From assembly GCA_910577255.1 (NCBI GenBank), contig CAJTMH010000004.1:99505-163504 (forward strand): DNA of 64,000 nt, in the 5' to 3' direction. Shown here piece by piece: positions 29,435-62,618 of this stretch. Within the stretch, counting starts at the first letter, position 1; every line of letters begins with the position of its first letter. This stretch comes from an uncultured Duncaniella sp. (lineage in GTDB: Bacteria > Bacteroidota > Bacteroidia > Bacteroidales > Muribaculaceae). The position numbers and the translations under genes were made by a program. The notes beneath the pieces were generated by a model. The model worked only from the letters and a program-made list of their open reading frames with translations. It did not search any database and was not told the DNA's origin.

Positions 29435-29896
29435 ATGGAACAGACTCTAATCATTTTCAAGCCTTCAGCTATTGAGCGCGCACTTGTCGGCAAGGTTCTC
29501 TCCCGCTTCGAGCAGAAAGGCCTCATCATTACCGGCATGAAGATGATGCAACTCTCCCCTGAGCTTCTGAAAGAGCATTACGCTCACCTCGTTGACCGTC
29601 CATTCTTCCCGCTGATCGTAGCATCCATGACCGCATGTCCGGTCATAGTGATGTGCCTCAAAGGGATTGACGCCATAAACGTCGTGCGGACCCTCACCGG
29701 CTCAACCAACGGCCGCCAGGCTGCCCCCGGAACCATCCGCGGTGATTTCTCGATGTCAAACCAAGCCAACATCATCCACGCCTCATCCTCTCCTGAGGAT
29801 GCCGAGGTAGAAATCAAGCGCTTCTTCCGCGACGACGAACTCTTCGACTATCTCCCCGCCAAGATGCCATATCTTTACAGCGAGGACGAACTCTGA
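29435..29896 (+). CDS. ndk: nucleoside-diphosphate kinase
   Basis: 153 aa. TLIIFKPSAIERALVGKVLSRFEQKGL and the active-site His context NIIHASSS. Confidence 0.95.
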   Translation: MEQTLIIFKPSAIERALVGKVLSRFEQKGLIITGMKMMQLSPELLKEHYAHLVDRPFFPLIVASMTACPVIVMCLKGIDAINVVRTLTGSTNGRQAAPGTIRGDFSMSNQANIIHASSSPEDAEVEIKRFFRDDELFDYLPAKMPYLYSEDEL

Positions 29897-29970: not shown

Positions 29971-30795
29971 ATGACTCTCAAAAAATTAAATACCCTCCTC
30001 GCAGCCGCTCTTCTCTCGCTCGCAGGCATATCCGCCCAAGCACAGCACCGCCTGCCGGAATCTCACTCCAACCAACATAACTCACTCATAGCCAACCAGC
30101 GTCCGTCGCTCAACCCCTTCAAGCTCGAAAACAACAATATTCTCCTCAACCAGGTGAAAGAGCGCGAAGCCCAGTATGACAGCGAAGTTTACGCCAACTT
30201 CTGGAACAGTGAACGTGTCAACCCCTACGGCTCTGCAGTGGCAATCCCCGAACACAAGAACATTGACGTATCCGAATATGTAGCCCCCGTGAAAGGACAT
30301 GTGACATCCAACTACGGCTACCGTTCACGCTTCGGCCGCATGCACTATGGCATCGACCTCAAGCTTCAGGTGGGCGACACTGTGCGCGCTGCATTCTCCG
30401 GTAAAGTCCGTCTCACAAAATACGAAGGCCGCGGATATGGCTACTATGTAGTGGTACGCCACGACAACGGAATGGAGACCGTCTACGGACACCTCAGCCG
30501 CTTCCTCGTGAAACCTAACCAGTATGTCAAGGCCGGCGAACCTATCGCCCTCGGCGGCAACACAGGACGCAGCACAGGAGCACATCTCCACTTCGAGACA
30601 CGCTACCTCGGCATTCCCATCAACCCCACAGCAATCATTGACTTCGAGAACTTCGTGCCTCACAAGGATGTGTTCGCATTCGACAAGCGCACCTACGCGA
30701 AGCCCCAGAAATACGCTCCTGCAAAGCGCAAATCAAAGACTTACGCTTCAAAGAAGCGCAAAACAACCAAACGCCGCACCGCGAAGAAGAAATAA
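29971..30795 (+). CDS. M23-family metallopeptidase with basic C-terminal tail
   Basis: HYGIDL and GNTGRSTGAHLHFE zinc-ligand motifs. Signal peptide. Lys/Arg-rich C-terminus. Confidence 0.85.
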   Translation: MTLKKLNTLLAAALLSLAGISAQAQHRLPESHSNQHNSLIANQRPSLNPFKLENNNILLNQVKEREAQYDSEVYANFWNSERVNPYGSAVAIPEHKNIDVSEYVAPVKGHVTSNYGYRSRFGRMHYGIDLKLQVGDTVRAAFSGKVRLTKYEGRGYGYYVVVRHDNGMETVYGHLSRFLVKPNQYVKAGEPIALGGNTGRSTGAHLHFETRYLGIPINPTAIIDFENFVPHKDVFAFDKRTYAKPQKYAPAKRKSKTYASKKRKTTKRRTAKKK

Positions 30796-31174: not shown

Positions 31175-31570
31175 CTACTCCAGCCAGCGGTCAACGGTGG
31201 CGATGGCTTCGGTGCGGAAGGCGTTGAAGGCTTCCCACTCGGCTTCGTAATCCCCGGCTTTAGCTATGTCTGGGTTCTTAAACAGCTCTATCTGGTGGGT
31301 CTTGATGGCATCCTCCTCCGTCTGGCTGTAACGGCTGCGGATTATGCCGTTTATCAGGCTGTCACGGCTCATATCGCCAGAGGCTATCAGTGTGCCACCG
31401 TCAGGCTCGGTGCCGGTATAGGCATAGCCTGTAACAGGCTCAGGGGCTTCCTCTCCGTCCCTGACCTCAGGCACATAATCCTCTATGACTTCCTCGTTGA
31501 GGTAAGCCATATAACGGTTGTCATCATATTTGACGAGCGTCTTGCGCTCGGTGTAGATTGCTTTATTCAT
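31175..31570 (-). CDS. hypothetical acidic phage protein (last gene of the tail/DGR operon)
   Basis: Start trimmed to MNKAIYTERK (31570), 2 nt after the RT stop. 131 aa, acidic, no motif recognised. Not Avd-like (not basic, not obviously helical). Confidence 0.5.
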   Translation of the reverse strand: MNKAIYTERKTLVKYDDNRYMAYLNEEVIEDYVPEVRDGEEAPEPVTGYAYTGTEPDGGTLIASGDMSRDSLINGIIRSRYSQTEEDAIKTHQIELFKNPDIAKAGDYEAEWEAFNAFRTEAIATVDRWLE

Positions 31571-31572
31571 TG

Positions 31573-33213
31573 TCACGTGAATTTGTAAAACTTCTTGTTT
31601 AACTTGTTGACCTGCTCCATGACCACGGTCGGACATGGGAGGTCAGCCTTGGTAAAGTCTTTTTCGGCTTGGTCGATCATGATAGCTGAACCTGTGTAGG
31701 AATAGTATTCGGCATCCTTTACCGTAGGGGTGCCGTTGCTGTCCTTTTCCCTCTCATAGACATAGCTCTCATGTTCCTCGCCGTCCACCGCCGTTTGAAC
31801 GACGGTTTGCAGTATGCGCTTGTACCGGATCACGAGGCACTTCTTGGGGCGGGTTTTTCGCTCCTGCCTCACGACACCATCCGGGCCGGTGACCTCGGCG
31901 AAGTAGTCTTCGGTTTCAACCTTGCTGTCCTCTATGGCATAGTCGAGCAGCATTATCTTGAAGTTATCCTCCTGCGCCGGATCTTTACAGACAATATCAG
32001 TAAACGGGCGCTTCTGGTCGTAGCGCATACCCTTGAACGGGATGTTGGCACGACGGTTCTTTATGACCTTTCCAAGTCGCTTTTCCATGTTTATATCGAG
32101 TTTTCTTAATAATGTATGCGAATTTGCGTGGGTGGCGAAACCTATACGGCTGGCACATTCCAACCGGGTTTCCTCCGGTGTCATGCCCTTCTTTTTACAT
32201 TTTGCCACCTGCCGACATAGGGCTTTCTTATTGCGCTTGCGAAGGGCGCGGTGGGTATGAAATGAAACATAGCCGCACACGTCTATGCCTCTGCTCCAGA
32301 CCGGGCGCACGTTCCAGTTCCGGTTGACCTCTATCAGATAATCCCGGGCAAGTACCATTATGCACATCTCCGTGACAAGGTGTAAGAATGTCTTGTCACG
32401 ATGGAGCATGACTATATTGTCGGCAAATCTGAAATACTGTATCGGTTCACTTATATAGCGGTCAAACTTGCCGACCATATAAGCCACTCCCCTGCCTAAT
32501 TCATCCGCCTGTTCCTTCGTGCGGCAGGTCACGAGGCTGTCGCTGACATAACGGTTACGCCAATATGCGAGCCTTTCGGGGTCTCCGGCTATACCGAAAA
32601 TCCCTACCGCGTCATGGTCAAACTTGGCTAAAAAGAAATTTGCTAATATCTGCGAGATCTTGACCCCTAAAGGCAGCCCCTGACGGAAGCTGTCGATAAA
32701 TTCATCGAGGAACCGCAACAGTTTTGGGTCTTTGATTTTAGTCCTGACCCGTTCTTTCATCAGGAAATGTGCGATATTCTGGAAATAGTGGTGGGCGTCA
32801 AGCTGAACGAAATACCACGTGCTTTCCGGATCAGTATAAAGCTCCTTGCGCAGCAGGTTGATGAAATCATGGGTGCCGCGTCCCTTGACGCAGGAGCACG
32901 ACCGCCGGATGAACGTGTCGGTAAACAGACGCTCGGTCTGAAGCAGCGGCGCCCACTGGCGCACATGGTCACGCACGGGAAGTTTGCTCACGATCCTGCG
33001 CTTGGGCTCGAAAATCTCCTCGTCCTGATACTCGGAGGTATGCCCGGTGCCGTCCCGGTATTCAGCCAGAAGTTCCATGAGGTTGGCTTTGAGGTTTGCC
33101 GCGAAGCGCTGCACATTGTCGCGCCGCTCTTTATATTCGGCAAAGCCCCGGAAAGCCGCCTCATAGTTCTCGATGGTCTCAATACGAGGAGATATGTATC
33201 CTCGTCGTTTCAT
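31573..33213 (-). CDS. DGR-type reverse transcriptase with ~180-aa C-terminal extension
   Basis: RT motifs: FVQLDAHHYFQNI (motif A Asp), LPLGVKISQILANFFL (the LGxxxSQ signature of DGR RTs) and YFRFADNIVML (motif C, FADN in place of YxDD). Lies adjacent to the TR. Confidence 0.85.
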   Translation of the reverse strand: MKRRGYISPRIETIENYEAAFRGFAEYKERRDNVQRFAANLKANLMELLAEYRDGTGHTSEYQDEEIFEPKRRIVSKLPVRDHVRQWAPLLQTERLFTDTFIRRSCSCVKGRGTHDFINLLRKELYTDPESTWYFVQLDAHHYFQNIAHFLMKERVRTKIKDPKLLRFLDEFIDSFRQGLPLGVKISQILANFFLAKFDHDAVGIFGIAGDPERLAYWRNRYVSDSLVTCRTKEQADELGRGVAYMVGKFDRYISEPIQYFRFADNIVMLHRDKTFLHLVTEMCIMVLARDYLIEVNRNWNVRPVWSRGIDVCGYVSFHTHRALRKRNKKALCRQVAKCKKKGMTPEETRLECASRIGFATHANSHTLLRKLDINMEKRLGKVIKNRRANIPFKGMRYDQKRPFTDIVCKDPAQEDNFKIMLLDYAIEDSKVETEDYFAEVTGPDGVVRQERKTRPKKCLVIRYKRILQTVVQTAVDGEEHESYVYEREKDSNGTPTVKDAEYYSYTGSAIMIDQAEKDFTKADLPCPTVVMEQVNKLNKKFYKFT

Positions 33214-33394
33214 TGTGTCTCGGTGTCATGGGTGTCTTAATGTGTCATTTTGGGTCAAACCGCAGTGTGATCTGCAATTTTCTCTTGCTTCGTTACCGTC
33301 GGCTGGAATCGTTGATTCCATCTACCGGCACTGCCCGCATTTCGTTTGTTTTTCGCCTTGGGGCGAGGCCCTGTCACCCCGCTTCTGGATTGTT

Positions 33395-33516
33395 GAGGGG
33401 CGAGCCGATGTTCGCATTGGCATTCGTGGGAGCGTTGTTCACATTGACCGCTCCTACGCCCGCATTGCCACCGTTGTTGGCGTTGGCGCCGCGAAACACA
33501 GCACGGAAGCCCGAAG
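33395..33516 (-). repeat. DGR template repeat (TR)
   Basis: 122-nt non-coding copy of the target gene 3' segment. In the VR frame it reads SGFRAVFRGANANNGGNAGVGAVNVNNAPTNANANIGSPL, with 10 AAY Asn codons and 24 adenines in total. Confidence 0.8.
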
Positions 33517-33557
33517 ACCGACTCTTGGACGACAGCAGCCCGATTGTTAAATCAACG

Positions 33558-33565
33558 CAAATTTA
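33558..33565 (-). promoter_or_regulatory. -7 promoter box (TAAATTTG) upstream of TR; candidate promoter of the TR-RT transcript
   Basis: Minus strand TAAATTTG lies 42 nt upstream of the TR 5' boundary. Confidence 0.35.
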
Positions 33566-33758
33566 ACACTTTTTCGTCTATCGAGACCGATATAAACATG
33601 GAAATATGTCAATGTTCTCTTTGCCCCCATTGCTGACGGGTGTCGGAACAAGTCCGACACGGGGGCTCCCTACGGTCGCCGGGTGCTTTGCCTTCGGCGC
33701 GTGCCAGGAACACCATGCACACACCGGACACCGGGCACCCTTTGACCTCCTGACCACT

Positions 33759-35234
33759 TTAGGCCACCGCGTAATACTCCGGCTCCAACGAGAACTCCTC
33801 TGCGAAATCGCAGAGGGGAGAGCCGATGTGCGCATAGGCATCCGAGACAGCGTTGTACACATCGACCGCACCACAGCCCGCAGGGCCACCATCGTTCGCA
33901 CTGGCACCACGGAAGACAGCACGGAAGCCCGAAGTGACGTTACCGTTGTTCCAGAAATAGTCACATTGGTAGGTAGATTCACTGCCGCCCGACTGGGTAG
34001 GCCACATCTCAAGATTATCGTAGCTCATCTTTATGATATAGCCGGAAGCGATCGGAGACGTTGATTTCAATACCATCCCGGCGGTGGAACCGTAGGTGTA
34101 GGTTCCATAGATGCTCGGGGTAACCCAATGTCTCATTGACTTGTCGGCATTCGCCTCGCCAAGTTCATCCTCGCTTACACGCCAGATATAGCCGAAGAAG
34201 TTTTTAAGACCGAAGAATACTGGTACTTTGGCGGTGAATACTGTCGTGCCGTCGGCATTAACTATCGGGATCTCTTTCACTCCGAGACCGTCTGCCATAT
34301 CGACGCCGGCGCTCATGTGCAGTATCGGATTATTACCGTTATAATTACTCCAGCTCGTCCAGTCCCAGTTGGTCACACCGGTGCCGAAGCCGCCTTGATA
34401 GAGCCCGTTGGCGTCCTTGTTGGCGTTGAAGGCTGCCTGAACGTTGCGGGTGCCCATGACTATCTCGACAAGGATCTTTACCACGGCTGCGGCTCTCATT
34501 GTGCCCGCAAGCCATCCTGCCCCGTTCTTATGGGCCGCCGCCGCGAACTGGGCGGTGCTTCGGTTCGTGGCGCAATGGCCGAGCAAGGAGCGGTAGGTGT
34601 CATCCCACCCCGAGGTGTTGTTGCCGCCACGGTACTTGACATCATCGTTGATATAGCTGACAAGGGTGTCGGTGTCGCGGTCAAGGGCCGCAAGGCCGGT
34701 GGCGCTGAGAGAGCCCACCGGGATACGGTAGTTGTACTGTCCTTTGATAGGATACAGGCTCACGGCTTCAAACTCAAGATTGCCCTGCGTCCACTTGGCG
34801 AAGTAGAAGGGTTTGCCCCACCCCCACTGATAATGCCCCATGCTTCCGTCGAGCTTGGCGGTCTCGCCATTTGCAAAGCGGTAGTGGTTGGTGGGGTCGA
34901 GCTTGCGCCGGCTGTGGTCGTTCTTGACAAGGTAGCCGCCAAGACCGAGTATATCCTTGAGGTTTTTTAGCATCTCAAGGCTGCCACAATAGGTGGCTGC
35001 CGCAGGGGTGGCGAGGTCTGTGCGCCATACCCTGCCGCACCACGGGGCGTTTGCCATATTGACGGCCGCTGTAAGGTCCATGCACTGGCTGGCGCCGCTT
35101 TTGGTGTCGAAAACCTCTATCTTCTTGTCGGTGGCATCCGTCGAGGCTGCCGGGAGATCGTCTATCTGCTCGCCGGTTTTGTATGCGTCGAGCATCGATA
35201 ACAGGTCCGCTTCCTGTTGTGCTGTTAATGCCAT
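33759..35234 (-). CDS. DGR target protein: tail-tip receptor-binding protein with C-terminal variable (C-type-lectin-like) region
   Basis: 491 aa. The last ~60 aa (..WNNGNVTSGFRAVFRGASANDGGPAGCGAVDVYNAVSDAYAHIGSPLC..) contain the VR. Sits at the distal end of the tail module. Confidence 0.85.
   Translation of the reverse strand: MALTAQQEADLLSMLDAYKTGEQIDDLPAASTDATDKKIEVFDTKSGASQCMDLTAAVNMANAPWCGRVWRTDLATPAAATYCGSLEMLKNLKDILGLGGYLVKNDHSRRKLDPTNHYRFANGETAKLDGSMGHYQWGWGKPFYFAKWTQGNLEFEAVSLYPIKGQYNYRIPVGSLSATGLAALDRDTDTLVSYINDDVKYRGGNNTSGWDDTYRSLLGHCATNRSTAQFAAAAHKNGAGWLAGTMRAAAVVKILVEIVMGTRNVQAAFNANKDANGLYQGGFGTGVTNWDWTSWSNYNGNNPILHMSAGVDMADGLGVKEIPIVNADGTTVFTAKVPVFFGLKNFFGYIWRVSEDELGEANADKSMRHWVTPSIYGTYTYGSTAGMVLKSTSPIASGYIIKMSYDNLEMWPTQSGGSESTYQCDYFWNNGNVTSGFRAVFRGASANDGGPAGCGAVDVYNAVSDAYAHIGSPLCDFAEEFSLEPEYYAVA
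33797..33816 (-). other. 8-bp stem / 4-nt loop hairpin immediately 3' of VR
   Basis: CCTCTGCG-AAAT-CGCAGAGG is a perfect inverted repeat. It overlaps the last 4 nt of TR/VR homology and is absent from the TR copy. Confidence 0.5.
33813..33934 (-). repeat. DGR variable repeat (VR)
   Basis: Ungapped alignment to TR (offset +418) has 98/122 identities. 12 of the 24 mismatches are at TR adenines. Confidence 0.8.
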
Positions 35235-51832: not shown

Positions 51833-53401
51833 ATGGCAAAAAAGCTGACGGCTGACCAGAAAGTCGCTCTGGAGAAATGGCGGGAGCATTGCCGGGATGT
51901 GCAGTCGATGACGGGCGTGTCCCTCGCGGTGGCACGCGAATCTCCGGCGGAGCGTGACCGGCGCATCAAAAGGCTGCTTTCCAATTACAATGAATTCTGC
52001 GAGTATTATTTCGCACACTTCATGACGCTCCGGGACAAATCCACCGGGGAGGTGGTAAAGGTTATACACAACGCGCCTTTCCACACCAAAGCAGCCATGA
52101 AGATCAGGAACACACCGAACCTGAAGGCGGTGTTCAAATGGCCGCGTGGTCATGCCAAATCCACCCATATCGGAGTATTCATTCCCCTTTGGCTGATTTT
52201 CCAACCGAAGCGCCTGATTGATTTCATGGTGACGGTAGGCAAGTCGGAGGACAGCGCCGTGCGTCTGCTCGGAGACCTTCAGGCGGAGCTTGAGTATAAC
52301 CAGAAGCTGATTGCTGATTTCGGCGAACAGAAGAACCTCGGCTCATGGCTCGAAGGGGAATTCAAAACCAAGGGCGGGGCCAAGTTCCTCGCCGTGGGGC
52401 GCGGCCAGTCACCCCGAGGTCTGCGTGACCGGGAGGCCCGTCCTGACTTCATAGTCATAGACGACTTGGACGATGACGAAACGTGCCGCAACGAAAAGCG
52501 CGTGAAGGATTTGACCGATTGGGTCAAGGAAGCTTTGTTCGGCGCGCTCGACGTGGGACGTGGCCGCTTCATCATGGTCGGCAACCTTATATCCAAAACC
52601 TCTGTCCTCGCAAATATATGCGCCTCGAAGGGAGTCCATGTGTCGGAAATAAAGGCTGTCGATGCCGAAGGAAATCCGGTGTGGGCGGATAAATGGACAC
52701 GCGAGGAGGCGGAGGCTTACCGTGAATTCGTGGGCTATCGTGCATGGGAAAAGGAAATGATGCATAATCCGATAAAGGACGGTACTATCTTCCGGCACGA
52801 GTGGATACGCTTCAAGAAGATACTTCCGCTGCATAAATACGACATGCTCGTGTGCTATACCGACCCCTCGTTCAAATCAACGACCTCTAACGACTATAAA
52901 GCCTCGCGTCTGTGGGGCAAGGTCGGCACTGAACTGCATCTGATCGACTGTTATGTGCGGCAGGACACGGTATCGGGCATGGTCCGCTGGCTATATAATC
53001 TTTACGAGTCTTTGCCGGACGATGTGGTGGTGTCATTCTTCATGGAAGCGAATTTCATGCAGGACATAATCCTTGACGAATTCGATGCGGAAGGGCGACT
53101 CAGGGGATATCAGCTCCCCTTGATGCCGGACACCCGAAAAAAGCCGGAAAAGATACAGCGCATCGAGGCTGTGTCGCCGCTGTGGGAGCGTGGCAAGGTT
53201 TTCTACAACGAGGAGCTGAAGGAGTCGCCGGACATGCAGGTCGGAATCGACCAGACCCTTTCGCTTGAGCGTGGCTCCCGCGCCCATGACGACGCTCCGG
53301 ATGCTGACGAGGGTGCTATATGGATTCTCCAGCGATGCTCAAGACAAGAAGTTTTCAAACCGGTGGTCATCGAAAGACGGTCACCCAAAAATATGTGGTA
53401 A
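51833..53401 (+). CDS. terminase large subunit
   Basis: 522 aa. Walker B-like FIVIDDLDDDE and the C-terminal nuclease Asp cluster (HDDAPDADEGAIW). Confidence 0.85.
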   Translation: MAKKLTADQKVALEKWREHCRDVQSMTGVSLAVARESPAERDRRIKRLLSNYNEFCEYYFAHFMTLRDKSTGEVVKVIHNAPFHTKAAMKIRNTPNLKAVFKWPRGHAKSTHIGVFIPLWLIFQPKRLIDFMVTVGKSEDSAVRLLGDLQAELEYNQKLIADFGEQKNLGSWLEGEFKTKGGAKFLAVGRGQSPRGLRDREARPDFIVIDDLDDDETCRNEKRVKDLTDWVKEALFGALDVGRGRFIMVGNLISKTSVLANICASKGVHVSEIKAVDAEGNPVWADKWTREEAEAYREFVGYRAWEKEMMHNPIKDGTIFRHEWIRFKKILPLHKYDMLVCYTDPSFKSTTSNDYKASRLWGKVGTELHLIDCYVRQDTVSGMVRWLYNLYESLPDDVVVSFFMEANFMQDIILDEFDAEGRLRGYQLPLMPDTRKKPEKIQRIEAVSPLWERGKVFYNEELKESPDMQVGIDQTLSLERGSRAHDDAPDADEGAIWILQRCSRQEVFKPVVIERRSPKNMW

Positions 53402-53403
53402 CT

Positions 53404-53634
53404 ATGATAGAGAGAATCAGACAGTATGTATTCGCATGGCGCTATCGTCGCGCTGTGCGCAAAGCAAAGGAGCTCGCCGGACTGTTCGGCATGAGATATT
53501 ATGTCATATCCCTGAACGGTAAGCTCAAGGTTGTGCCCAAGCAGACCATAAAGGAGCTTGTGCGCCGCAAGAGGTTCCGCAAGGGAGTGACTGTCGATGA
53601 CATAGAGAAAAAAGCGCTGTTTGTAACCCGATAA
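53404..53634 (+). CDS. small basic hypothetical phage protein
   Basis: Start set at MIERIRQYVF (2 nt after the terL stop). 76 aa. Confidence 0.4.
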   Translation: MIERIRQYVFAWRYRRAVRKAKELAGLFGMRYYVISLNGKLKVVPKQTIKELVRRKRFRKGVTVDDIEKKALFVTR

Positions 53635-53645
53635 CCTTTTATAAT

Positions 53646-54062
53646 ATGTTTGTGACAGATGATGATTACAGCGTGGTTGTCGGTGATGACGCACTGAAGG
53701 TGATATCCCGTGCTTCAGTCGAGAACCGTGCCAATGCCGAACTTGAGGCGATGGAGGAGATTTCCGGATATCTGCGACCGGTATATGACTGCGCCGCAAT
53801 ATTCGGCTCCGAGGGGGACGGCCGCAACCGGCTAATTGTGATGTACACGGTTGATATAGCCCTATACCACATGGTGGCTTCTTTACCGCAAAAGATGGGT
53901 ATTGAGATACGCAAGGAGCGCTACGAGCGCGCCATCAAATGGCTCGAAGGGGTCCAGTCCGGGAAAATAGTGCCTGATCTGCCTGTTGTAGATGACTCCG
54001 ACAATTCCCCTACAAATACAATAATTTATCACTCGGAACGAAAGCTCCGGCATAACTGGTAA
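53646..54062 (+). CDS. Mu gp36-like (DUF1320-type) head-tail connector protein
   Basis: 138 aa. N-terminal MFVTDDDYSVVVGDDALKVI...AELEAMEEISGYLR pattern resembles the gp36/DUF1320 family (recognised from memory). Confidence 0.5.
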   Translation: MFVTDDDYSVVVGDDALKVISRASVENRANAELEAMEEISGYLRPVYDCAAIFGSEGDGRNRLIVMYTVDIALYHMVASLPQKMGIEIRKERYERAIKWLEGVQSGKIVPDLPVVDDSDNSPTNTIIYHSERKLRHNW

Positions 54063-54066
54063 CGGT

Positions 54067-55389
54067 ATGAATATTCTCGACAATTTTCTTCAGAATTTCC
54101 GCTCAAGGAAAACTGAAGCTCCAATACTGCATACACCGCATGGTGATCTTAATCTCGCCAAGCCCGGAGACCGCAAGAAGTTCCAACGCACGGTGTTTGA
54201 GATTCAACGGGTGACCGATGCCTTAACCCAACAGGACATAGCCGACTGGCGCATGGCTTGGCAGATGGCATTGAACGTTGACTCACCAAACCGCCGCAAG
54301 TTATACGATATATATCGGGATGTGGATGCCGACCCGCACCTCTCCGGCTGTACCACCCAGCGCCGGGGATTCGTGATGTCCCGATCATTCAAACTCGTAA
54401 ACGCCTCCGGCGACGAGGATGAGAAAGCTCGGCATTATTTCGACCAGTCATGGTTCAAACAGCTCCTGAGACTCGCACATGATTCCATCTGGTGGGGGCA
54501 TTCACTGATCGAGCTCGGGGAACTTACCCGTGACGGCGACGGTTGCCTCTGCTATGACGGCGTGAAGCTCATCCCCCGAAAACATGTGATCCCGGAATAC
54601 CATCGTTGTGTTGTGAATATCGGCGACGACTGGAAATCCGGGGTTAACTATCACGAGGCACCCTACGCCGACTGGCTTATAGAGGCCGGTTTGCCGGATG
54701 ACCTCGGGATTTATCTCAAGGCTGCCCAGCAGACCATACCGAAAAAACATGCCAATGCGTTCTGGGACGCTTTCGCTGAGATTTTCGGGATGCCGATGCG
54801 CATTGCCCGAACCACGACACGCGACCCTAAGGAGTGGAACCGCCTCGAAAAGATGATGCGGGATGCCGGAACCGCTCTCTCCATGGTCGCCGGCATGGAG
54901 ACCGAGATACAGTTTGTCGAGTCCGGAAAGGGCGACGCTTTCAACGTCTATGACAAGCGCATCGACAGGGCAAACTCGGAGTTGTCAAAACTTACCATCG
55001 GGCAGACCATGACCATCGAGGACGGCTCCTCCCTTTCACAATCGGAAACTCACCTTCAGGTGTTCGAGAACCTTGTTGAGTCAGACCGGGATATGCTGCG
55101 CGACATAGTGAACAATCAGCTCATACCACGAATGATAAAACACGGTTTCCCTCTGAAGGGACTGCGTTTTGAATGGAATGATGCGGTTGATTACACTCCG
55201 GAACAGCAGATTCAATACGAGACTATGATTGCCGACCGTTACGAAGTTGATCCGTCATATTTTGCCGACAAATACGGCATGCCGGTCGGAGAGCGTCGCG
55301 ACAGGATGCCAGAACCTCCGACAGATAGTTCTGACGATAATCCTGACGATGACGGAAAGCAAAAGAATTCCCGCCGTTTTTTCGACTGA
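54067..55389 (+). CDS. portal protein (Mu gp29/DUF935-like)
   Basis: 440 aa, between terminase and the Mu-F-like gene, with an acidic C-terminal tail. Ends at ...RRFFD* within a T6 run. Confidence 0.75.
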   Translation: MNILDNFLQNFRSRKTEAPILHTPHGDLNLAKPGDRKKFQRTVFEIQRVTDALTQQDIADWRMAWQMALNVDSPNRRKLYDIYRDVDADPHLSGCTTQRRGFVMSRSFKLVNASGDEDEKARHYFDQSWFKQLLRLAHDSIWWGHSLIELGELTRDGDGCLCYDGVKLIPRKHVIPEYHRCVVNIGDDWKSGVNYHEAPYADWLIEAGLPDDLGIYLKAAQQTIPKKHANAFWDAFAEIFGMPMRIARTTTRDPKEWNRLEKMMRDAGTALSMVAGMETEIQFVESGKGDAFNVYDKRIDRANSELSKLTIGQTMTIEDGSSLSQSETHLQVFENLVESDRDMLRDIVNNQLIPRMIKHGFPLKGLRFEWNDAVDYTPEQQIQYETMIADRYEVDPSYFADKYGMPVGERRDRMPEPPTDSSDDNPDDDGKQKNSRRFFD

Positions 55390-55514
55390 GCCCCGCTGAC
55401 TATGCGGGGCTGCATGAGCGTTATGCCCGGTGGCTCGGCGACAATCCCCCGACACTGACTCTCGGGAAAGAGGAGGATGCTTTACGCAAGCGACTCTCCG
55501 GATTATTCAATGGT

Positions 55515-56708
55515 ATGATGAAAGCTGTGTACAAAACAGACGGCGCAGAACTTGCCATCGACATATTGTCAACCCCTCAAGTCCGGGAATTCATGGATGC
55601 CCATGCGGTGGCTCTCGACTCGTCGTTTGAAAAGGTCGATATGTCGGACGCCATGCGCCGGAGGCTTCAACGCTCAAACTTCGTTTTCTCCGGCATGAAG
55701 TCGTACCATGAGGTCAATGAGGCTCTCTCGTTGCTTTATGATGATAACGGTGTTATAAAGCCGTTCGAACAGTTTTTGAACGATGCCCGGAATATCGATG
55801 AGATCTACAACCGCAACTGGCTCCGGTCTGAGTATAATTTCGTGGCTTCATCGGCACAGATGGCTTCCAAATGGGAAAGGTTCATGGCTGACGGTGACCG
55901 TTACAATCTCCAGTACCGAACCCAGAAGGATGACAAGGTGCGTCCGGAACATGCCGCTCTCGACGGTGTGACGCTGCCGCCTTCGGATTCTTTCTGGGAA
56001 GAATTCTATCCGCCCAACGGTTGGAACTGCCGTTGCACCGTGGTTCAGGTGCGCAAATCTAAATACACCGAGACTCCGCATGACGAGGCTATGCGTCTCG
56101 GCGATGACGCTCTCCAGCGCGACACCAAGGGGATATTCCGTTTCAATCCCGGACTGGAGCAAAAGTCTGTCCCGGATTACAACCCATACACCATCCGTCG
56201 CTGCCGGGACTGCGACATAGCCAAAGGGAAGCTCAAGCTCGCCCGGGCATTCGTGCCGGACAATGAGGTCTGCGCGGCTTGCAAGTACATACGCTCCTGT
56301 CTGGAATTCCGCCGAGATCCCGGGTTCGTGAATTATCGTAAAAGTATCGTTGAAGATGCGACCAGACTTGAAGCCGGGCATCCGAATCTGGCGACAGGGA
56401 ATTTTTACCAGACTAAAAAATCATTCAAACGTGGAATAGCCCATGCCATGAATATCGAGGAGGCTGAAATGTTCTCCAAAATCAATCTGCACATATCAGA
56501 TCTTGTTTATGTGCGCGAGAGCCCATTGGGTGAAGTCAAAGATATGACGAACCCGAAGGCTATCGCGAACATCAAAAAGAAAAAGGAGCGTGGCGTAACC
56601 GGATATAACGTTTATGAGCTTCAACTCGGTTCCGACACTTGGATTGTAAAGACCGAAGTCTATAAAGAGCGCACTGAAGCCATATACCATATAATGAAAA
56701 AAGAGTAA
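55515..56708 (+). CDS. head morphogenesis protein (Mu F / SPP1 gp7 family) with C-terminal extension; true N-terminus may lie upstream
   Basis: NWLRSEYNFVASSAQMASKWERF...YRTQKDDKVRPEHAALDGV...NGWNCRCTVVQV is the Mu F signature. The frame is open and protein-like from 55353, with no start codon before 55515. Confidence 0.85.
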   Translation: MMKAVYKTDGAELAIDILSTPQVREFMDAHAVALDSSFEKVDMSDAMRRRLQRSNFVFSGMKSYHEVNEALSLLYDDNGVIKPFEQFLNDARNIDEIYNRNWLRSEYNFVASSAQMASKWERFMADGDRYNLQYRTQKDDKVRPEHAALDGVTLPPSDSFWEEFYPPNGWNCRCTVVQVRKSKYTETPHDEAMRLGDDALQRDTKGIFRFNPGLEQKSVPDYNPYTIRRCRDCDIAKGKLKLARAFVPDNEVCAACKYIRSCLEFRRDPGFVNYRKSIVEDATRLEAGHPNLATGNFYQTKKSFKRGIAHAMNIEEAEMFSKINLHISDLVYVRESPLGEVKDMTNPKAIANIKKKKERGVTGYNVYELQLGSDTWIVKTEVYKERTEAIYHIMKKE

Positions 56709-56870
56709 GCAATAACCCACACGTCGATCACATACGACTTTAAAGGCTAAAACCTACTCTTTGAGTGCAAAGATAACACATTAATTTCAAATATAGTTGA
56801 TGTTATGAGCTAAAAATATCATTGTCCCTCCGGGGAGGACATAAAAATGCCCCCGGCTTGTTAAACAGTC

Positions 56871-56967
56871 GTCTCACTTACTCTTTAACACAAACACGGA
56901 TTCACCGGCCGCCGGGAGCATTATGCCTTACCGGCCGGTGAATCCGTGCTATTTGAATAAGTGAGAC
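56871..56967. other. 97-nt nested inverted repeat (10-bp outer plus 16-bp inner perfect stems)
   Basis: Outer stem GTCTCACTTA (56871-80) / TAAGTGAGAC (56958-67). Inner stem CACGGATTCACCGGCC (56895-910) / GGCCGGTGAATCCGTG (56933-48). Confidence 0.45.
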
Positions 56968-56994
56968 ACTGCAAAATTAACAATTAATTTCGAT

Positions 56995-57237
56995 ATGACG
57001 ATATTTGAGATACTGAAATTCAACCGGGAACTGCTTGAAAGGCTACGCAATATCGGTGTGCGTCTCGAGGACACACGTTATATTGACCTTTTCGGTGAAT
57101 TCAACGATATGGTTCTTGCCGGGGAAAAGGTGTCCTATGCGGTAGCCGTCCTTGCCGAGAAATACGGTATCAGCGAAAGGAAGGTATATAGCCTTGTCAG
57201 GCATTTCCGCAATGACTGCAATCCGGGTGCAGTGTGA
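56995..57237 (+). CDS. small HTH protein, Mor/C-like transcription activator candidate
   Basis: 80 aa. C-terminal HTH AVAVLAEKYGISERKVYSLVRHF. Confidence 0.4.
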   Translation: MTIFEILKFNRELLERLRNIGVRLEDTRYIDLFGEFNDMVLAGEKVSYAVAVLAEKYGISERKVYSLVRHFRNDCNPGAV

Positions 57238-57307
57238 TTGGTCTTTGCCGTGGTGAAGGGGTGTCTCCCCTGCTCTACCTTTGCATCATCACCAACGACA
57301 AATCATC

Positions 57308-57952
57308 ATGGCAAAAAACAAATACCATCAAATTCTTGCCCGTATCCTTTCGGAGGGCAAGACACAGACCAACCGCAAGGGAGATATACTCTATCTGATC
57401 AACCAGTCACTGTCTCTTACACCGGGCGACCTCCTCGATATTTTTGAGGAACACGGCATTGCCCGGAAGAAACTGCGCACCGAGCTTCAGCTTTTCATGC
57501 AGGGTGAAAGTTCAGTGGAGCGATACCGCGAGGTCGGCATCAACTGGTGGGATTACTGCGGCTCCATACTCATCAATTCCTATCCCACTTACTTCGAGAA
57601 GCTGCCCCCGCTCATCGACCGTATCAACCGGGAAAAGCGCAATTCAAAGAATTATGTGCTGTTCCTCAGTGAGACCAACGCCCAATCAAATCAAACGCCG
57701 TGCCTGTCGCTTGTGCAGTTCCAGATCGACGAGGGCGAGCTTGTACTAACCGCATACCAGCGCAGCTCTGACGCAAGTCTCGGTCTTCCCGCCGACATAT
57801 ACCATCTCTACCTTATGGCAAAGCACATTGATGTGCCGCTCAAGTCCATCACGCTGTTCCTCGGCAATGTGCATATCTACGAAAATAATATTGACAACAC
57901 CCGCAAGCTGCTCTCCGGCAACGATACGGTAAGATTCAAACTCAACGTATGA
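57308..57952 (+). CDS. thymidylate-synthase-family pyrimidine C5 transferase, predicted cytosine-nucleotide specific (dCMP hydroxymethylase/methylase-like)
   Basis: Aligns by eye to E. coli ThyA: NRKGD (DRTGTG), TPCLSLVQFQ (catalytic Cys132), YQRSSDASLGLPADIY (QRSCDVFLGLPFNIASY) and GNVHIYENN (GDTHLYSNH). Asp163 replaces ThyA Asn177. Confidence 0.75.
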   Translation: MAKNKYHQILARILSEGKTQTNRKGDILYLINQSLSLTPGDLLDIFEEHGIARKKLRTELQLFMQGESSVERYREVGINWWDYCGSILINSYPTYFEKLPPLIDRINREKRNSKNYVLFLSETNAQSNQTPCLSLVQFQIDEGELVLTAYQRSSDASLGLPADIYHLYLMAKHIDVPLKSITLFLGNVHIYENNIDNTRKLLSGNDTVRFKLNV

Positions 57953-58803
57953 GCAAACTGTATATGTCCGCGCCATTGCCTTTCGTAGGGCAAAAGCGCA
58001 TGTTCGCCAAGCACTTCATAGAGGTTATAAAGCAATATCCCGCCGGCACCGTATTCGTTGACCTGTTCGGAGGCTCCGGATTATTGTCGCATATCACAAA
58101 ACACTTCCATCCCGATTCAACAGTGATATATAATGACTTTGACGGATACCGCCGGCGCATCGACAACATATCGCGCACCAACCATCTGCTGTCATTGATC
58201 CGTCCCATCGCATCCCGGTTCCCGCGCCATAAGCCGGTGACCGGCGATGCCCGGGAGGAGATATTCCGCATACTGGAATCGGAGGAGCGAGAATCAGGAT
58301 TCCTTGATTTCATCACCATTTCGTCATCGTTGATGTTCTCAATGAAATACAAGATGTCAATCCCTGAGATGCGCAAGGAAGTTCTTTACAATAATGTCCG
58401 CAAATCCGGGTATGCCGAATGCCCGGATTATCTCGAAGGGCTTGAGATAACCTCGTGTGACTACAAAGAGCTTTTCGAAAGATATCGAAACATCCCGGGA
58501 GTTGTATTCCTTGTGGACCCACCGTACCTCTCAACTGATGTCGGCACCTACCGTATGTATTGGCGACTCGCCGATTACCTCGATGTGCTGTCGGTACTCC
58601 CGAGGCATAATTTCATCTATTTCACGTCCGAAAAATCATGCATTGTGGAGCTGTGCGAGTGGATGGGTCGGAACCCGGCTCTCGGCAACCCGTTTGCCCG
58701 ATGCCGGCGCAAGGAATTCAACGCCACCATGAATTATAATGCAGGATACACCGATATTATGCTTTTCACAGACCCGGGCGCGCAACCATCACGCCAAATT
58801 TAG
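57949..58803 (+). CDS. DNA N6-adenine methyltransferase (Dam-like, alpha-class motif order)
   Basis: Motif I FVDLFGGSG near the N-terminus and motif IV DPPY downstream. The ATG overlaps the upstream stop (ATGA). Confidence 0.8.
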   Translation: MSKLYMSAPLPFVGQKRMFAKHFIEVIKQYPAGTVFVDLFGGSGLLSHITKHFHPDSTVIYNDFDGYRRRIDNISRTNHLLSLIRPIASRFPRHKPVTGDAREEIFRILESEERESGFLDFITISSSLMFSMKYKMSIPEMRKEVLYNNVRKSGYAECPDYLEGLEITSCDYKELFERYRNIPGVVFLVDPPYLSTDVGTYRMYWRLADYLDVLSVLPRHNFIYFTSEKSCIVELCEWMGRNPALGNPFARCRRKEFNATMNYNAGYTDIMLFTDPGAQPSRQI

Positions 58804-58830
58804 CCGTTTATTCGCCCATATAACGCAATA

Positions 58831-58869
58831 GAGCCGTCACCCGATAAAGGTAACGGCTCCCGTTGTTTT
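58831..58869. terminator. bidirectional terminator between convergent genes
   Basis: GAGCCGTCACC...GGTAACGGCTC hairpin followed by CCGTTGTTTT. Confidence 0.5.
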
Positions 58870-58886
58870 AATGCGACACGTGGCGT

Positions 58887-59390
58887 TTATGGGGCTTTGG
58901 GCGCAGCACTCTTGATGGCTACGTAGCTGTAAACCTCGATGCTCTCCACAATATCCTCATGGTCGTGGTTGGTGTGGGACTCGGCGAGTTGGAAGTCTTT
59001 GAAGGTCTCGCCATCGATGCCGGCGATCACATCATGGATTTTATCGGGCAGATCAAGGTCTATCCCGACACCGGCAAAATCCTTATATGCCGGAGCCCAG
59101 TCAGTAACTATATGCAGTCTGACATTAGCCTCGGCACGGTATTCCACCGCCGGAACAATGTCATTCCAACGGATAGGCTCGAATTCGATGAACACCGCCG
59201 GACGCTCCCATGGAGTGTCCTGATCGATGAATTCGACATTGCGGTTCCACAGGTCGATATGCTTTATAGCCCGAGGATAAAGTTCGTCATCGACATCCGC
59301 TTCATCCGGTCTTGTGTAATATTCCCCGGCAGCGTTTACGCAAAGAGCCTCAAGCCGGGTCTTGATCGCGTTGTATAATTCCTTTCTCAT
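58887..59390 (-). CDS. hypothetical phage structural (neck/tail-completion?) protein
   Basis: 167 aa, translationally coupled to the upstream morphogenesis gene (4-nt overlap). Confidence 0.45.
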   Translation of the reverse strand: MRKELYNAIKTRLEALCVNAAGEYYTRPDEADVDDELYPRAIKHIDLWNRNVEFIDQDTPWERPAVFIEFEPIRWNDIVPAVEYRAEANVRLHIVTDWAPAYKDFAGVGIDLDLPDKIHDVIAGIDGETFKDFQLAESHTNHDHEDIVESIEVYSYVAIKSAAPKAP

Positions 59391-61771: not shown

Positions 61772-61990
61772 TTATCTTTTATTAGGTTTCCACTCTACTG
61801 TTACCACGGCAATGACCTCGCCGGTTCCCTTGCAGTCGGGGCACTCCTCCATCGATGGGCCTTCGACCGTATCAATCGGGAATCCTCCCCTGCCGTTGCA
61901 ATAGCGGCATGTCATCGGAGCGGAAACAAACGCCTCATTATGGATGCGCCCGGAAGGTTCAAGCTCCACTATCTGTTTCTTTATGCTCAT
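61772..61990 (-). CDS. mini zinc-finger protein with two CxxCxGxG motifs (second copy)
   Basis: Motifs CRYCNGRGG and CPDCKGTGE. 72 aa. Confidence 0.55.
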   Translation of the reverse strand: MSIKKQIVELEPSGRIHNEAFVSAPMTCRYCNGRGGFPIDTVEGPSMEECPDCKGTGEVIAVVTVEWKPNKR

Positions 61991-62618
61991 CTTTTTCTAT
62001 GTTGTTTGACGTTCTTAACTCTCCTTCTTCCCATATTGTGTAGCAGCTGCCCGGATCTCCGGTGAAGCGCCCTTGACAATAAGCCTTGTAGCCTACCACT
62101 CGGATTTTAATTCCGGCTTTGTATTTGAGTCGCCCTGCCGGTTTGCCGGCTGGTTCCCCTTTATACTCCTGCGATATGAATATGAAACTCTTGCGATGGA
62201 AACGGCTTATCAGCTCCATGAATTGATCGTAAGTGATTCCGCTCTCCTGAAAGCTGTCGATTATGACGAACTTTGCGCTCTTAGGGCGACCGAGTCTCTC
62301 AGCAAGTTCCTCGTAGGTGTCATCAGTGATCACGCGGAATCGCCCCTGCACCTCACTCATCCTTTCACGCTTTATTCGCATCTGGAACGACTGACTTATT
62401 CCTTCCTCATAGCTCAAATACAGGGTGGTCCCGTAGTTGCATAATTCCTTGGCAAGCTGCATCACGAAGCTGCTCTTGCCGGATGCCGAGGCGCCACTGA
62501 TAAACCATGTCTCGTTGACTGGCACCTCACCAAATGGACCGCTCCATTTCTCGCCCCATGGTAAGGTCTTGTATTTTTTGGCGAGAACCTCTTTCGGACT
62601 GTATGCTCGCTTTGCCAT
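61959..62618 (-). CDS. P-loop NTPase (RecA/KaiC-superfamily-like)
   Basis: Walker A GASASGKSS and Walker B-like FVIIDSFQE. 219 aa. Confidence 0.6.
   Translation of the reverse strand: MAKRAYSPKEVLAKKYKTLPWGEKWSGPFGEVPVNETWFISGASASGKSSFVMQLAKELCNYGTTLYLSYEEGISQSFQMRIKRERMSEVQGRFRVITDDTYEELAERLGRPKSAKFVIIDSFQESGITYDQFMELISRFHRKSFIFISQEYKGEPAGKPAGRLKYKAGIKIRVVGYKAYCQGRFTGDPGSCYTIWEEGELRTSNNIEKDEHKETDSGA

Follow-up and report, generated by a model that had tools for sequence, protein, structure and literature searches.

In a 64,000-nucleotide stretch of the genome of an uncultured Duncaniella sp. (GenBank assembly GCA_910577255.1, contig CAJTMH010000004.1, positions 99,505 to 163,504 of the forward strand; hereafter the window), a Mu-like prophage carries a three-gene cassette that encodes a small helix-turn-helix (HTH) protein, a protein resembling thymidylate synthase (TS) and a DNA methylase. 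We report that the TS-like protein is a true member of the thymidylate synthase superfamily with a complete catalytic set, that it bears an aspartate at the position discriminating cytosine from uracil nucleotides, and that its gene is linked across many phages to the gene of a methylase homologous to the N6-adenine methyltransferase Hia5. We consider it somewhat probable that the cassette is a DNA-modification module, in which a TS-like enzyme modifying deoxycytidine monophosphate (dCMP) and a Hia5-type methylase would together protect progeny DNA from restriction. The two enzyme genes are located as follows:

57308..57952, plus strand: gene of the TS-like protein, 214 amino acids, a predicted dCMP C5 one-carbon transferase
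57949..58803, plus strand: gene of a methylase of 284 amino acids, starting at ATG, assigned by sequence to the Hia5/Hin1523 family of N6-adenine DNA methyltransferases

The start of the TS-like gene was set at ATG 57308 rather than at TTG 57281, the start in the mechanical list of open reading frames (ORFs), because dozens of homologues of 214 amino acids span 100% of the query; its TGA stop ends at 57952. The protein matches the Pfam family PF00303 (Thymidylat_synt) with an expectation value (E) of 9e-22 (77.9 bits, cutoff 24.3) over profile positions 2-226 of 266, and PHROG 160 with E 4.5e-32. The strength of the Pfam match, the existence of more than 8000 database homologues and the presence of Asp163 in 142 of 144 aligned family members argue that the resemblance is not due to chance. 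All NCBIfam ThyA equivalog models score far under cutoff, the best reaching 56.7 bits against a required 327. The protein ends near E. coli residue 230, about where phage T4 gp42 ends, and lacks the last 35-40 residues found in ThyA. An AlphaFold2 model computed from an alignment of 12 diverse family members reached a predicted local distance difference test score (pLDDT) of 93 and a predicted template-modelling score of 0.91 (a single-sequence model, with pLDDT 43, was unusable). The top matches of this model in a Foldseek search of the PDB are all thymidylate synthases (Elizabethkingia, E. coli and M. tuberculosis ThyA), with query-normalised template-modelling (TM) scores of 0.83-0.85 and root-mean-square deviations of 2.2-2.7 A.

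Active-site residues were assigned through two alignments. In phmmer searches against PDB sequences, the GLPADI segment aligns with GLPFNI of E. coli ThyA and thereby places Asp163 at the Asn177 position, while TPCLSLVQFQ aligns with APCHAFFQFY (Cys132 at Cys146), YQRSSDA with YQRSCDV and GNVHIY with GDTHLY. The register of Asp163 and Asn177 was unchanged in a MAFFT alignment with T4 gp42, the Xp12 TS homologue, RB69 gp48 and SPO1 gp29, all taken from the respective phage genomes, and with the sequence of E. coli ThyA. In the Asn177 column of this alignment the dCMP enzymes (T4 gp42, Xp12 TS and RB69 gp48) have Asp and the deoxyuridine monophosphate (dUMP) enzymes (E. coli ThyA and SPO1 gp29) have Asn, with Asp163 sharing its column with T4 Asp179. 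The codon of Cys132 is TGC at 57701-57703, inside NQTPCLSLVQFQ; that of Asp163 is GAC at 57794-57796, inside GLPADIY; and that of Gln129, at the E. coli L143 position, lies at 57692-57694. The first-pass annotation of this DNA had described a ThyA-like protein of 214 amino acids retaining the catalytic set and had put Asp163 (GAC 57794-57796) at the Asn177 position. The profile match, the model and the conserved residues agree with the former statement and both alignments with the latter, and the misalignment that the annotation had named as its possible failing was not found. Conservation was counted over 144 aligned sequences, comprising 143 full-length database relatives and the window protein:

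Cys132, E. coli C146: 141/144
Glu59, E. coli E58: 140/144
Trp81, E. coli W80: 141/144
Arg152, E. coli R166: 143/144
Ser153, E. coli S167: 142/144
Asp155, E. coli D169: 143/144
Asp163, E. coli N177: 142/144
His189, E. coli H207: 141/144
Tyr191, E. coli Y209: 142/144
Gln129, E. coli L143: 135/144
Leu133, E. coli H147: 129/144
Cys84, E. coli W83: 126/144
Lys114, E. coli R126: 132/144 (Arg in 9)
Asn115, E. coli R127: 137/144
Lys24, one residue past E. coli R21: 133/144

Several of these positions can be compared with the characterised phage enzymes. Lys28 of the T4 dCMP hydroxymethylase stands at the Arg21 position itself, and Lys24 of the family one residue later; RB69 gp48 has Asn in the Asp169 column, where the family keeps Asp (Asp155); and the Xp12 methylase has Asn at the L143 position, three residues ahead of the catalytic Cys. 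The local sequence N-S-Y-P-T-Y was compared with T4 Ser94/Tyr96 for its Ser/Thr-x-Tyr geometry. Tyr92 and Pro93 are invariant in 12 diverse members and Thr94 and Tyr95 vary in distant ones, and either Tyr92 or Tyr95 may be the catalytic tyrosine.

These residues bear directly on the substrate. Aspartate at position 177 is the determinant for cytosine over uracil, as established by mutagenesis of the E. coli and L. casei synthases and of T4 Asp179 (cited in PMC13326640, PMC8670742 and PMC6400193), and a virome association study singled out position 147 as the second position separating modified from unmodified contigs (PMC8670742); there the family has Leu instead of His. The CMP hydroxymethylases MilA and BcmA, which prefer cytidine monophosphate (CMP), have Ala at TS Ser167, and the A176S change turns the preference of MilA to dCMP; Lys at position 126 is found in both, with Arg in the deoxy-specific enzymes, and plays only an auxiliary role in MilA (PMC5175136). 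Because Ser153 is kept in the family, dCMP rather than CMP is indicated, and dCMP is most likely the substrate as far as the sequence signature can tell. The family keeps the residues that bind the 3'-OH group (His189 and Tyr191) and the phosphate (Arg152, Ser153 and Lys114), which points to a free mononucleotide and makes an enzyme acting on polynucleotide DNA, which we also considered, unlikely. The presence of Glu59, Asp155 and Trp81 supports the use of methylene-tetrahydrofolate.

The nature of the product is less constrained. According to published rules, a bulky hydrophobic residue three positions before the catalytic Cys gives methyl transfer, Asp or Glu there gives hydroxymethyl transfer, and D169N gives hydroxylation (PMC13326640); in T4 the carboxylate of Asp145 activates water and D145N is dead, and in ThyA it is Trp83 and the C-terminal tail that close the site for hydride transfer (PMC6400193). 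With Gln at the L143 position, neither tail nor Trp83, and Asp169 kept, the TS-like family fits no characterised product class. An amide before the Cys is compatible with methyl transfer, because the Xp12 methylase has Asn there, yet Xp12 keeps a long C-terminus. In TS mutants whose active site is opened, the exocyclic methylene intermediate is prone to capture by nucleophiles, which would favour hydroxymethylation. The published signature residues cannot decide between the two for this family, and we regard methyl and hydroxymethyl products as roughly equally likely on these residues, with a smaller chance of something else.

A search of 1.84 billion cluster representatives returned 52 relatives at E < 1e-30, mostly fragments; the TS-like family comprises about a dozen full-length clusters at 50% identity. 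The next-best full-length matches (P0238, P0239, P0242, P0243 and P0269; 63-74 bits) share Asp177 but have Leu143 and longer C-termini, and with phmmer the top-scoring canonical ThyA structure reaches about 45 bits. In a neighbour-joining (NJ) tree of 210 well-aligned columns, to be read as indicative, the family forms a clade with a modest bootstrap of 66, adjoining a ThyA-like group and standing apart from Xp12 and from the T4/RB69 pair. Among the distant members of the family, a relative with 56% identity (L086) is flanked by small genes and a NinG homologue, without a methylase neighbour, in a phage whose replication module is of single-stranded DNA-binding protein and DnaB type. Another, with Asp at 177 and Gln ahead of the Cys, is carried by a very small phi29-like phage (L109/L110, on ENA contigs of about 13 kb), whose genes include those for a Gp16-type packaging ATPase and a protein-primed DNA polymerase B; no kinase was found in the 9.6 kb examined. 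Since such distant members with the same signature lack a methylase neighbour, the TS-like enzyme can function alone, and the pairing of the two genes would, on the loci compared, be a feature of the Hankyphage lineage introduced below. Four further contigs (P0133, P0146, P0171 and P0231; 1.4-3.4 kb) hold no informative neighbours; a search with P0146 returned mostly the main family, and P0197 had no match in viral contigs.

The methylase gene begins within its neighbour through an ATGA overlap, its ATG at 57949-57951 lying on the TGA of the TS-like gene at 57950-57952. The protein carries FGGSG at residues 40-44 (nucleotides 58066-58080) and DPPY at residues 190-193 (58516-58527), and matches the Pfam D12 class (35.7 bits, cutoff 22) and phrog_56. 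In BLASTP it aligns with Hia5 (P0335) at 32% identity over 277 amino acids, central region included (E 2e-52), and with T4 Dam at 22% identity (E 4e-5); against PDB sequences only a marginal T4 Dam match around DPPY was obtained. By tblastn, homologues were located in Moraxella phages and in SuMu, a Mu-like phage of Haemophilus, where gp53 shows 33% identity over 95% of the length. The gp53 gene comes right after that of a Com homologue, close to the right genome end, and gp53 leads in database searches to Hia5 (UniRef G9C944), to which it is 72% identical. By these comparisons we assign the window methylase to the Hia5 family. The first-pass annotation had called it a "Dam-like" DPPY N6-adenine methylase; the DPPY motif, the D12 class and the gene overlap stand, and the Dam type gives way to the Hia5 type. 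Encoded at the mom position of Mu-like prophages, Hia5, Hin1523 and Nme1821 methylate most adenines and confer resistance to all 30 of the N6-methyladenine (m6A)-sensitive enzymes tested (PMC3299994), and membership in this non-specific family strengthens an anti-restriction role.

The prophage extends from about 31 kb to the right edge of the window. Its minus strand encodes a MuB-like transposition protein, a RadA/Sak4-like ATPase, Gam, neck, protease, capsid, amidase, tape-measure and tail proteins and a reverse transcriptase, and an inverted block on the plus strand (51833-58803) encodes terminase, adaptor, portal and a MuF-like protein, followed by the cassette. The TS-like protein is 78% identical to those of Bacteroides phage p00 (Hankyphage) and of recently isolated Hankyvirus phages. 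Hankyphage likewise has an inverted head-gene block, yet its cassette lies at the right end, and this difference from the position after the MuF-like gene seen here argues that the cassette has moved between two phage types.

Linkage was examined in a context set of 80 IMG/VR viral loci and 80 species-representative genomes. The three cassette genes stay together in 78 of the 80 viral loci and in about 77 of the 80 genome loci (about 155 of 160 overall). Three settings occur: behind the MuF-like gene, the arrangement of the window; behind the genes of a diversity-generating retroelement (DGR) at the right end, the arrangement of p00; and with the methylase gene preceding the TS-like gene. The ATGA overlap is confined to the window-type arrangement, the two genes being about 100 bp apart in p00. 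Both p00 and jmh43_hp show, up to the right end of the genome, the succession of reverse transcriptase, Avd, a 243-bp gene, "thymidylate synthase" and "DNA methyltransferase", and neither phage has an annotated kinase, dCTPase or deaminase. The hosts comprise Bacteroides, Phocaeicola, Prevotella, Alloprevotella, Alistipes, Muribaculaceae, Barnesiella and Paludibacter, a spread that agrees with the report that Hankyvirus lysogenises 52 species in 5 families (PMC12629997). Across loci, identity is 77-81% for the TS-like protein, 67-76% for portal, 63-73% for MuF, 59-87% for the methylase and 44-76% for the HTH protein, and the tighter range of the TS-like protein across genera points to selection on its gene. 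Both the temperate Mu-like setting and the coupling of the two enzyme genes had been proposed in the earlier reading of the window; the MuB-like, Gam, MuF-like, terminase and portal genes and the 78% identity to p00 confirm the one, and the persistence of linkage through three settings and both gene orders the other.

That reading had further noted no kinase or dCTPase partner in the window. This stands for the prophage, in which neither gene was found, but not for the flanking, apparently host DNA, where a nucleoside diphosphate kinase (NDK) gene lies at 29435-29893 (Pfam NDK, E 6e-48). An M23 peptidase gene (29971-30795) follows it, and about 1.3 kb separate it from the last prophage gene found, an ORF that lies downstream of the reverse transcriptase gene and ends at 31175. 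Its place beside a randomly transposing phage is probably coincidental, though it encodes a host enzyme of the kind that the pathway would need. Within the prophage, the sole P-loop candidate, a protein of 219 amino acids (61962-62618), was considered as a kinase on a weak match (Thymidylate_kin, E 1e-3) and rejected in view of its RadA match (E 2e-5) and its Sak4-like PHROG.

A different arrangement was observed in a Hankyphage-type element of Bacteroides clarus YIT 12056 (L144:3932-5501, the same element as L038), in which the HTH and TS-like genes are kept and the methylase gene is replaced by genes for a 368-amino-acid ABC-type ATPase/GNAT fusion (under Pfam cutoffs) and a 162-amino-acid Formyl_trans_N protein (over cutoff). 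By analogy with the acyltransferase-like Mom of phage Mu (PMC3299994), this pair may serve DNA modification in another way, as a module of its own, or may lie in flanking host DNA; the right-end sequence of p00 was looked for at this locus and not found.

If the cassette serves DNA modification, it would be expressed in lytic development, and the 80-amino-acid Mor/HTH-like protein might control its expression. Cys132 would attack C6 of dCMP, with 5,10-methylene-tetrahydrofolate as the one-carbon donor, to yield a C5-modified dCMP (5-methyl-dCMP or 5-hydroxymethyl-dCMP). Host kinases would then be needed, because the phage encodes no deoxynucleoside monophosphate (dNMP) kinase: the CMP/dCMP kinase and nucleoside diphosphate kinase of the host would phosphorylate the product to the triphosphate, which the host replisome would incorporate in the course of replicative transposition. 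Since no dCTPase is encoded, replacement of cytosine would probably be partial. After replication, the Hia5-like enzyme would add m6A at many sites, and the packaged DNA would carry marks on purine and pyrimidine positions, in a role like that of com-mom in Mu.

Several points weigh against this interpretation, and the missing kinase is its main weakness: the phage encodes neither kinase nor dCTPase, and other TS homologues assayed in E. coli were co-expressed with a promiscuous phage kinase for clear incorporation, and gave only a trace signal alone (PMC13326640; bioRxiv 10.1101/2024.12.05.627091). The Hankyphage papers in which virion DNA was sequenced mention no modified cytosine (PMC12135933). 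Neither known product route is clearly supported, the protein having neither the C-terminal tail of ThyA nor a carboxylate of the T4 Asp145 type; the Arg127 position is occupied by Asn (137/144), and Tyr94 is only partly conserved among the most divergent members. As for the methylase, 32% identity to Hia5 is no proof of non-specific methylation.

Absence of a kinase and a dCTPase would also fit a role confined to the monophosphate pool, in which 5-methyl-dCMP or its triphosphate would be deaminated by the host to dTMP or dTTP, or dCMP would simply be drained, so that nucleotide pools would shift in lytic growth or in lysogeny while virion DNA stayed free of modified base. Phages with dCMP-methylating TS homologues have been proposed to make thymidylate by deamination of 5-methyl-dCTP (bioRxiv 10.1101/2024.12.05.627091), and both the NJ tree and the bit scores put the family nearer to ThyA-type methyl enzymes than to T4-type hydroxymethylases. 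We nonetheless consider such pool manipulation unlikely: 70% of such deaminases lie within 3 kb of the TS gene (bioRxiv 10.1101/2024.12.05.627091), but no deaminase gene was found near the TS-like gene in any locus examined, the hosts make dTMP already, and the lasting association with a DNA methylase gene in a mom-like module speaks for DNA modification. The product, on the other hand, need not be any of 5-methyl-, 5-hydroxymethyl- or 5-hydroxy-dCMP, if the exocyclic methylene intermediate on dCMP were resolved without hydride transfer and without water activated by Asp or Glu. The family forms a clade of its own, with a signature outside the characterised classes (Gln in 135/144, neither tail nor Trp83, and an Asp169 whose retention argues against the 5-hydroxy type; PMC13326640; PMC6400193). 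This evidence is purely negative, however, and the Gln may merely position water, the Xp12 methylase has a similar amide (Asn) at the same site, and no partner enzyme for another group is conserved beside the TS-like gene, so that new chemistry of this kind appears improbable.

Two further alternatives concern the substrate. Lys at position 126 in 132 of 144 sequences, as in MilA and BcmA (PMC5175136), could be taken to indicate CMP or another substrate unrelated to DNA, as with the CMP hydroxymethylases; given that Ser153 is present in 142/144, that the corresponding Ala176 is the main determinant in MilA (PMC5175136), that the neighbours are phage replication or modification genes and that no N-glycosidase or nucleoside-antibiotic genes lie nearby, we judge this very improbable. 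Least credible of all is an ordinary auxiliary thymidylate synthase converting dUMP to dTMP, although GenBank phage records and metagenome-assembled genomes annotate the protein as "thymidylate synthase" or "ThyA" and its closest structures are those of ThyA: Asp replaces Asn177 in 142/144 sequences and Leu replaces His147, while Trp83, Leu143 and the C-terminal 35-40 residues are missing, and the best ThyA equivalog model gives 56.7 bits where 327 are required. A bolder proposal, which we rate as doubtful, is that the TS-like proteins of Hankyphages constitute an unrecognised functional class (short, with Asp177 and Gln143 and no tail) that works without phage kinase or dCTPase and either breaks the product rules or replaces cytosine ahead of replication, in a temperate transposable phage, with host enzymes only.

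Among characterised systems, E. coli ThyA is the closest in sequence (22% identity) and in structure, and its N177D variant (N229D in L. casei) becomes a dCMP methylase (cited in PMC8670742 and PMC13326640), but the family is set apart from it by the loss of His147, Trp83, Leu143, Arg127 and the last 35-40 residues. In Xanthomonas phage Xp12 a TS homologue acts as dCMP methyltransferase and 5-methylcytosine replaces cytosine in the virion. The TS-like protein shares with it the TS fold, the catalytic Cys, Asp at the Asn177 position and an amide three residues before the Cys (Asn in Xp12, Gln here), and differs from it by an identity of 18%, a separate clade and short proteins, where the Xp12 enzyme has retained both its long C-terminal region and an aromatic side chain in place of Trp83. 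The Xp12 gene, moreover, lies beside dCMP deaminase and dihydrofolate reductase genes in a lytic phage, whereas the TS-like gene is found without such neighbours in a temperate transposable phage. T4 gp42 likewise has Asp at the discriminating position and Lys replacing Arg21, and lacks Trp83 and the C-terminal tail (PMC6400193), yet it is 15% identical and needs Asp145 where the family has Gln (PMC6400193), and it works with the dCTPase gp56, the dNMP kinase gp1 (bioRxiv 10.1101/2024.12.05.627091) and glucosyltransferases, none of which is present here. The short archaeal synthases of TIGR03283 (thy_syn_methano) have a comparably compact architecture, the match covering profile positions 11-200 of 201, but the protein scores 41.7 bits against a cutoff of 174.55.

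For the methylase, the parallels lie with Hia5, Hin1523 and Nme1821, which are of the same size and carry FxGxG and DPPY at equivalent positions (the catalytic Asp of Hia5 being residue 194). They too belong to a late modification module of Mu-like phages (PMC3299994), and the p00 methylase gene is the last at the right end; in the window, however, the methylase gene is preceded by TS-like and HTH genes rather than by Com, and the cassette sits after the MuF-like gene. The com-mom operon of phage Mu resembles the cassette in placing a small regulator before a DNA-modifying function at or near the right end, with broad anti-restriction effect in Mu (PMC3299994). It differs in that the proteins are unrelated, Mom being acyltransferase-like and Com a zinc finger, and in that the cassette would act on two different bases through two enzymes, modifying one of these bases before replication.

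Two additional elements belong to or accompany the cassette:

56995..57237, plus strand: first cassette gene, encoding the 80-amino-acid helix-turn-helix protein (phrog_17790, E 1e-29)
56871..56967, plus strand: long nested hairpin of inverted repeats, ending 27 nt ahead of the first cassette gene

The 80-amino-acid protein has weak Pfam matches to HTH_28 (E 4e-4) and to Mor, which activates the middle genes of Mu (E 1.6e-3), both under cutoff, and is possibly a Mor/C-like transcription activator, as far as these matches go. In nearly all of the 160 loci its gene directly precedes that of the TS-like protein or that of the methylase. The hairpin preceding it consists of outer arms at 56871-56883 and 56955-56967 and of inner arms at 56895-56911 and 56932-56948, which form a perfect 17-bp stem, with an apex reading CCGGGAGCATTATGCC; the predicted RNA fold of 56700-57000 has an energy of -92.8 kcal/mol (z -7.7). 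A hairpin of about 100 nt (window 56826-56967, L001:19556-19659, L014:6318-6414) precedes the first cassette gene in 154 loci and in all three settings, and from this co-occurrence we infer that it belongs to the cassette. The outer arms and the apex motif CCGGGGGCAnnATGCCCT are conserved, and the inner stem is hypervariable between loci yet almost perfectly self-complementary, with compensatory changes at 12 of 16 predicted pairs among 23 diverse copies. An Rfam scan of 56500-59000 gave only sub-threshold microRNA-precursor noise for the hairpin and no family match. It could act as a terminator or operator of the cassette, as an RNA processing site or as a single-strand recombination site that moves the cassette. 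In two pairs of otherwise identical elements (L187 and L150; L016 and L019) the apex of about 20 nt is reverse-complemented, and its occurrence in opposite orientations points to flipping between the hairpin arms at the DNA level. A second, GC-rich hairpin at 58803-58890 (GAGCCGTCACC...GGTAACGGCTC), between the methylase gene and a converging minus-strand gene (58887-59390), is probably a bidirectional terminator.

The prophage also contains a DGR at 31576-35234, comprising a reverse transcriptase gene (31576-33213, minus strand) and, next to it, two DGR-like repeats of 141 nt (33376-33516 and 33794-33934) that are 77% identical in the repeat scan and 88% identical as a MAFFT pair. The second copy lies in the 3' end of a 491-amino-acid gene (33759-35234), and many of the mismatches, though not all, fall at adenines of the first copy.

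The change from Asn to Asp is already a routine predictor of cytosine-modifying TS homologues in virome mining (PMC8670742; bioRxiv 10.1101/2024.12.05.627091). The principle is therefore known, and what is new is the TS-like subfamily and the phage that hosts it. In the literature consulted we found no recognition of the Asp177 signature in the "ThyA" of Hankyphage-type viruses, no characterised TS homologue combining Asp177, Gln143 and the lack of a C-terminal tail, no temperate transposable phage with a pre-replicative cytosine pathway and no TS homologue paired with a Hia5-type methylase; the Hankyphage papers proved silent on the TS gene, on DNA modification and on methylation, and no peptides of the family were found in the supplementary files of the MetaGPA paper. 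The known pre-replicative cytosine-replacing phages are lytic and have kinase and dCTPase partners, and one-enzyme cytosine replacement in a temperate transposable phage, if true, would extend that paradigm. The TS-like family falls outside the current residue rules for the products of viral TS homologues, and an assay of its activity would refine them, while the Bacteroidales relative of Hia5 could serve as a chromatin-footprinting reagent.

Few temperate phages of the human and animal gut are as widespread as the Hankyphage-type viruses, whose host range of 52 species is unusually wide (PMC12629997). These viruses are hard to study because they form no plaques (PMC12135933), but inducible lysogens exist (PMC12135933; PMC12629997). 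Were the TS-like proteins indeed an unrecognised class, their pairing with a Hia5-type methylase would mark both strands of every base pair and could help explain how Hankyvirus lysogenises dozens of species in five Bacteroidales families. If the DNA of these phages carries C5-modified cytosine together with dense m6A, evasion of restriction and of CRISPR (clustered regularly interspaced short palindromic repeats) systems and the prediction of host range would be affected, as would methylation-based host assignment in metagenomes and, possibly, the behaviour of phage DNA in sequencing and cloning.

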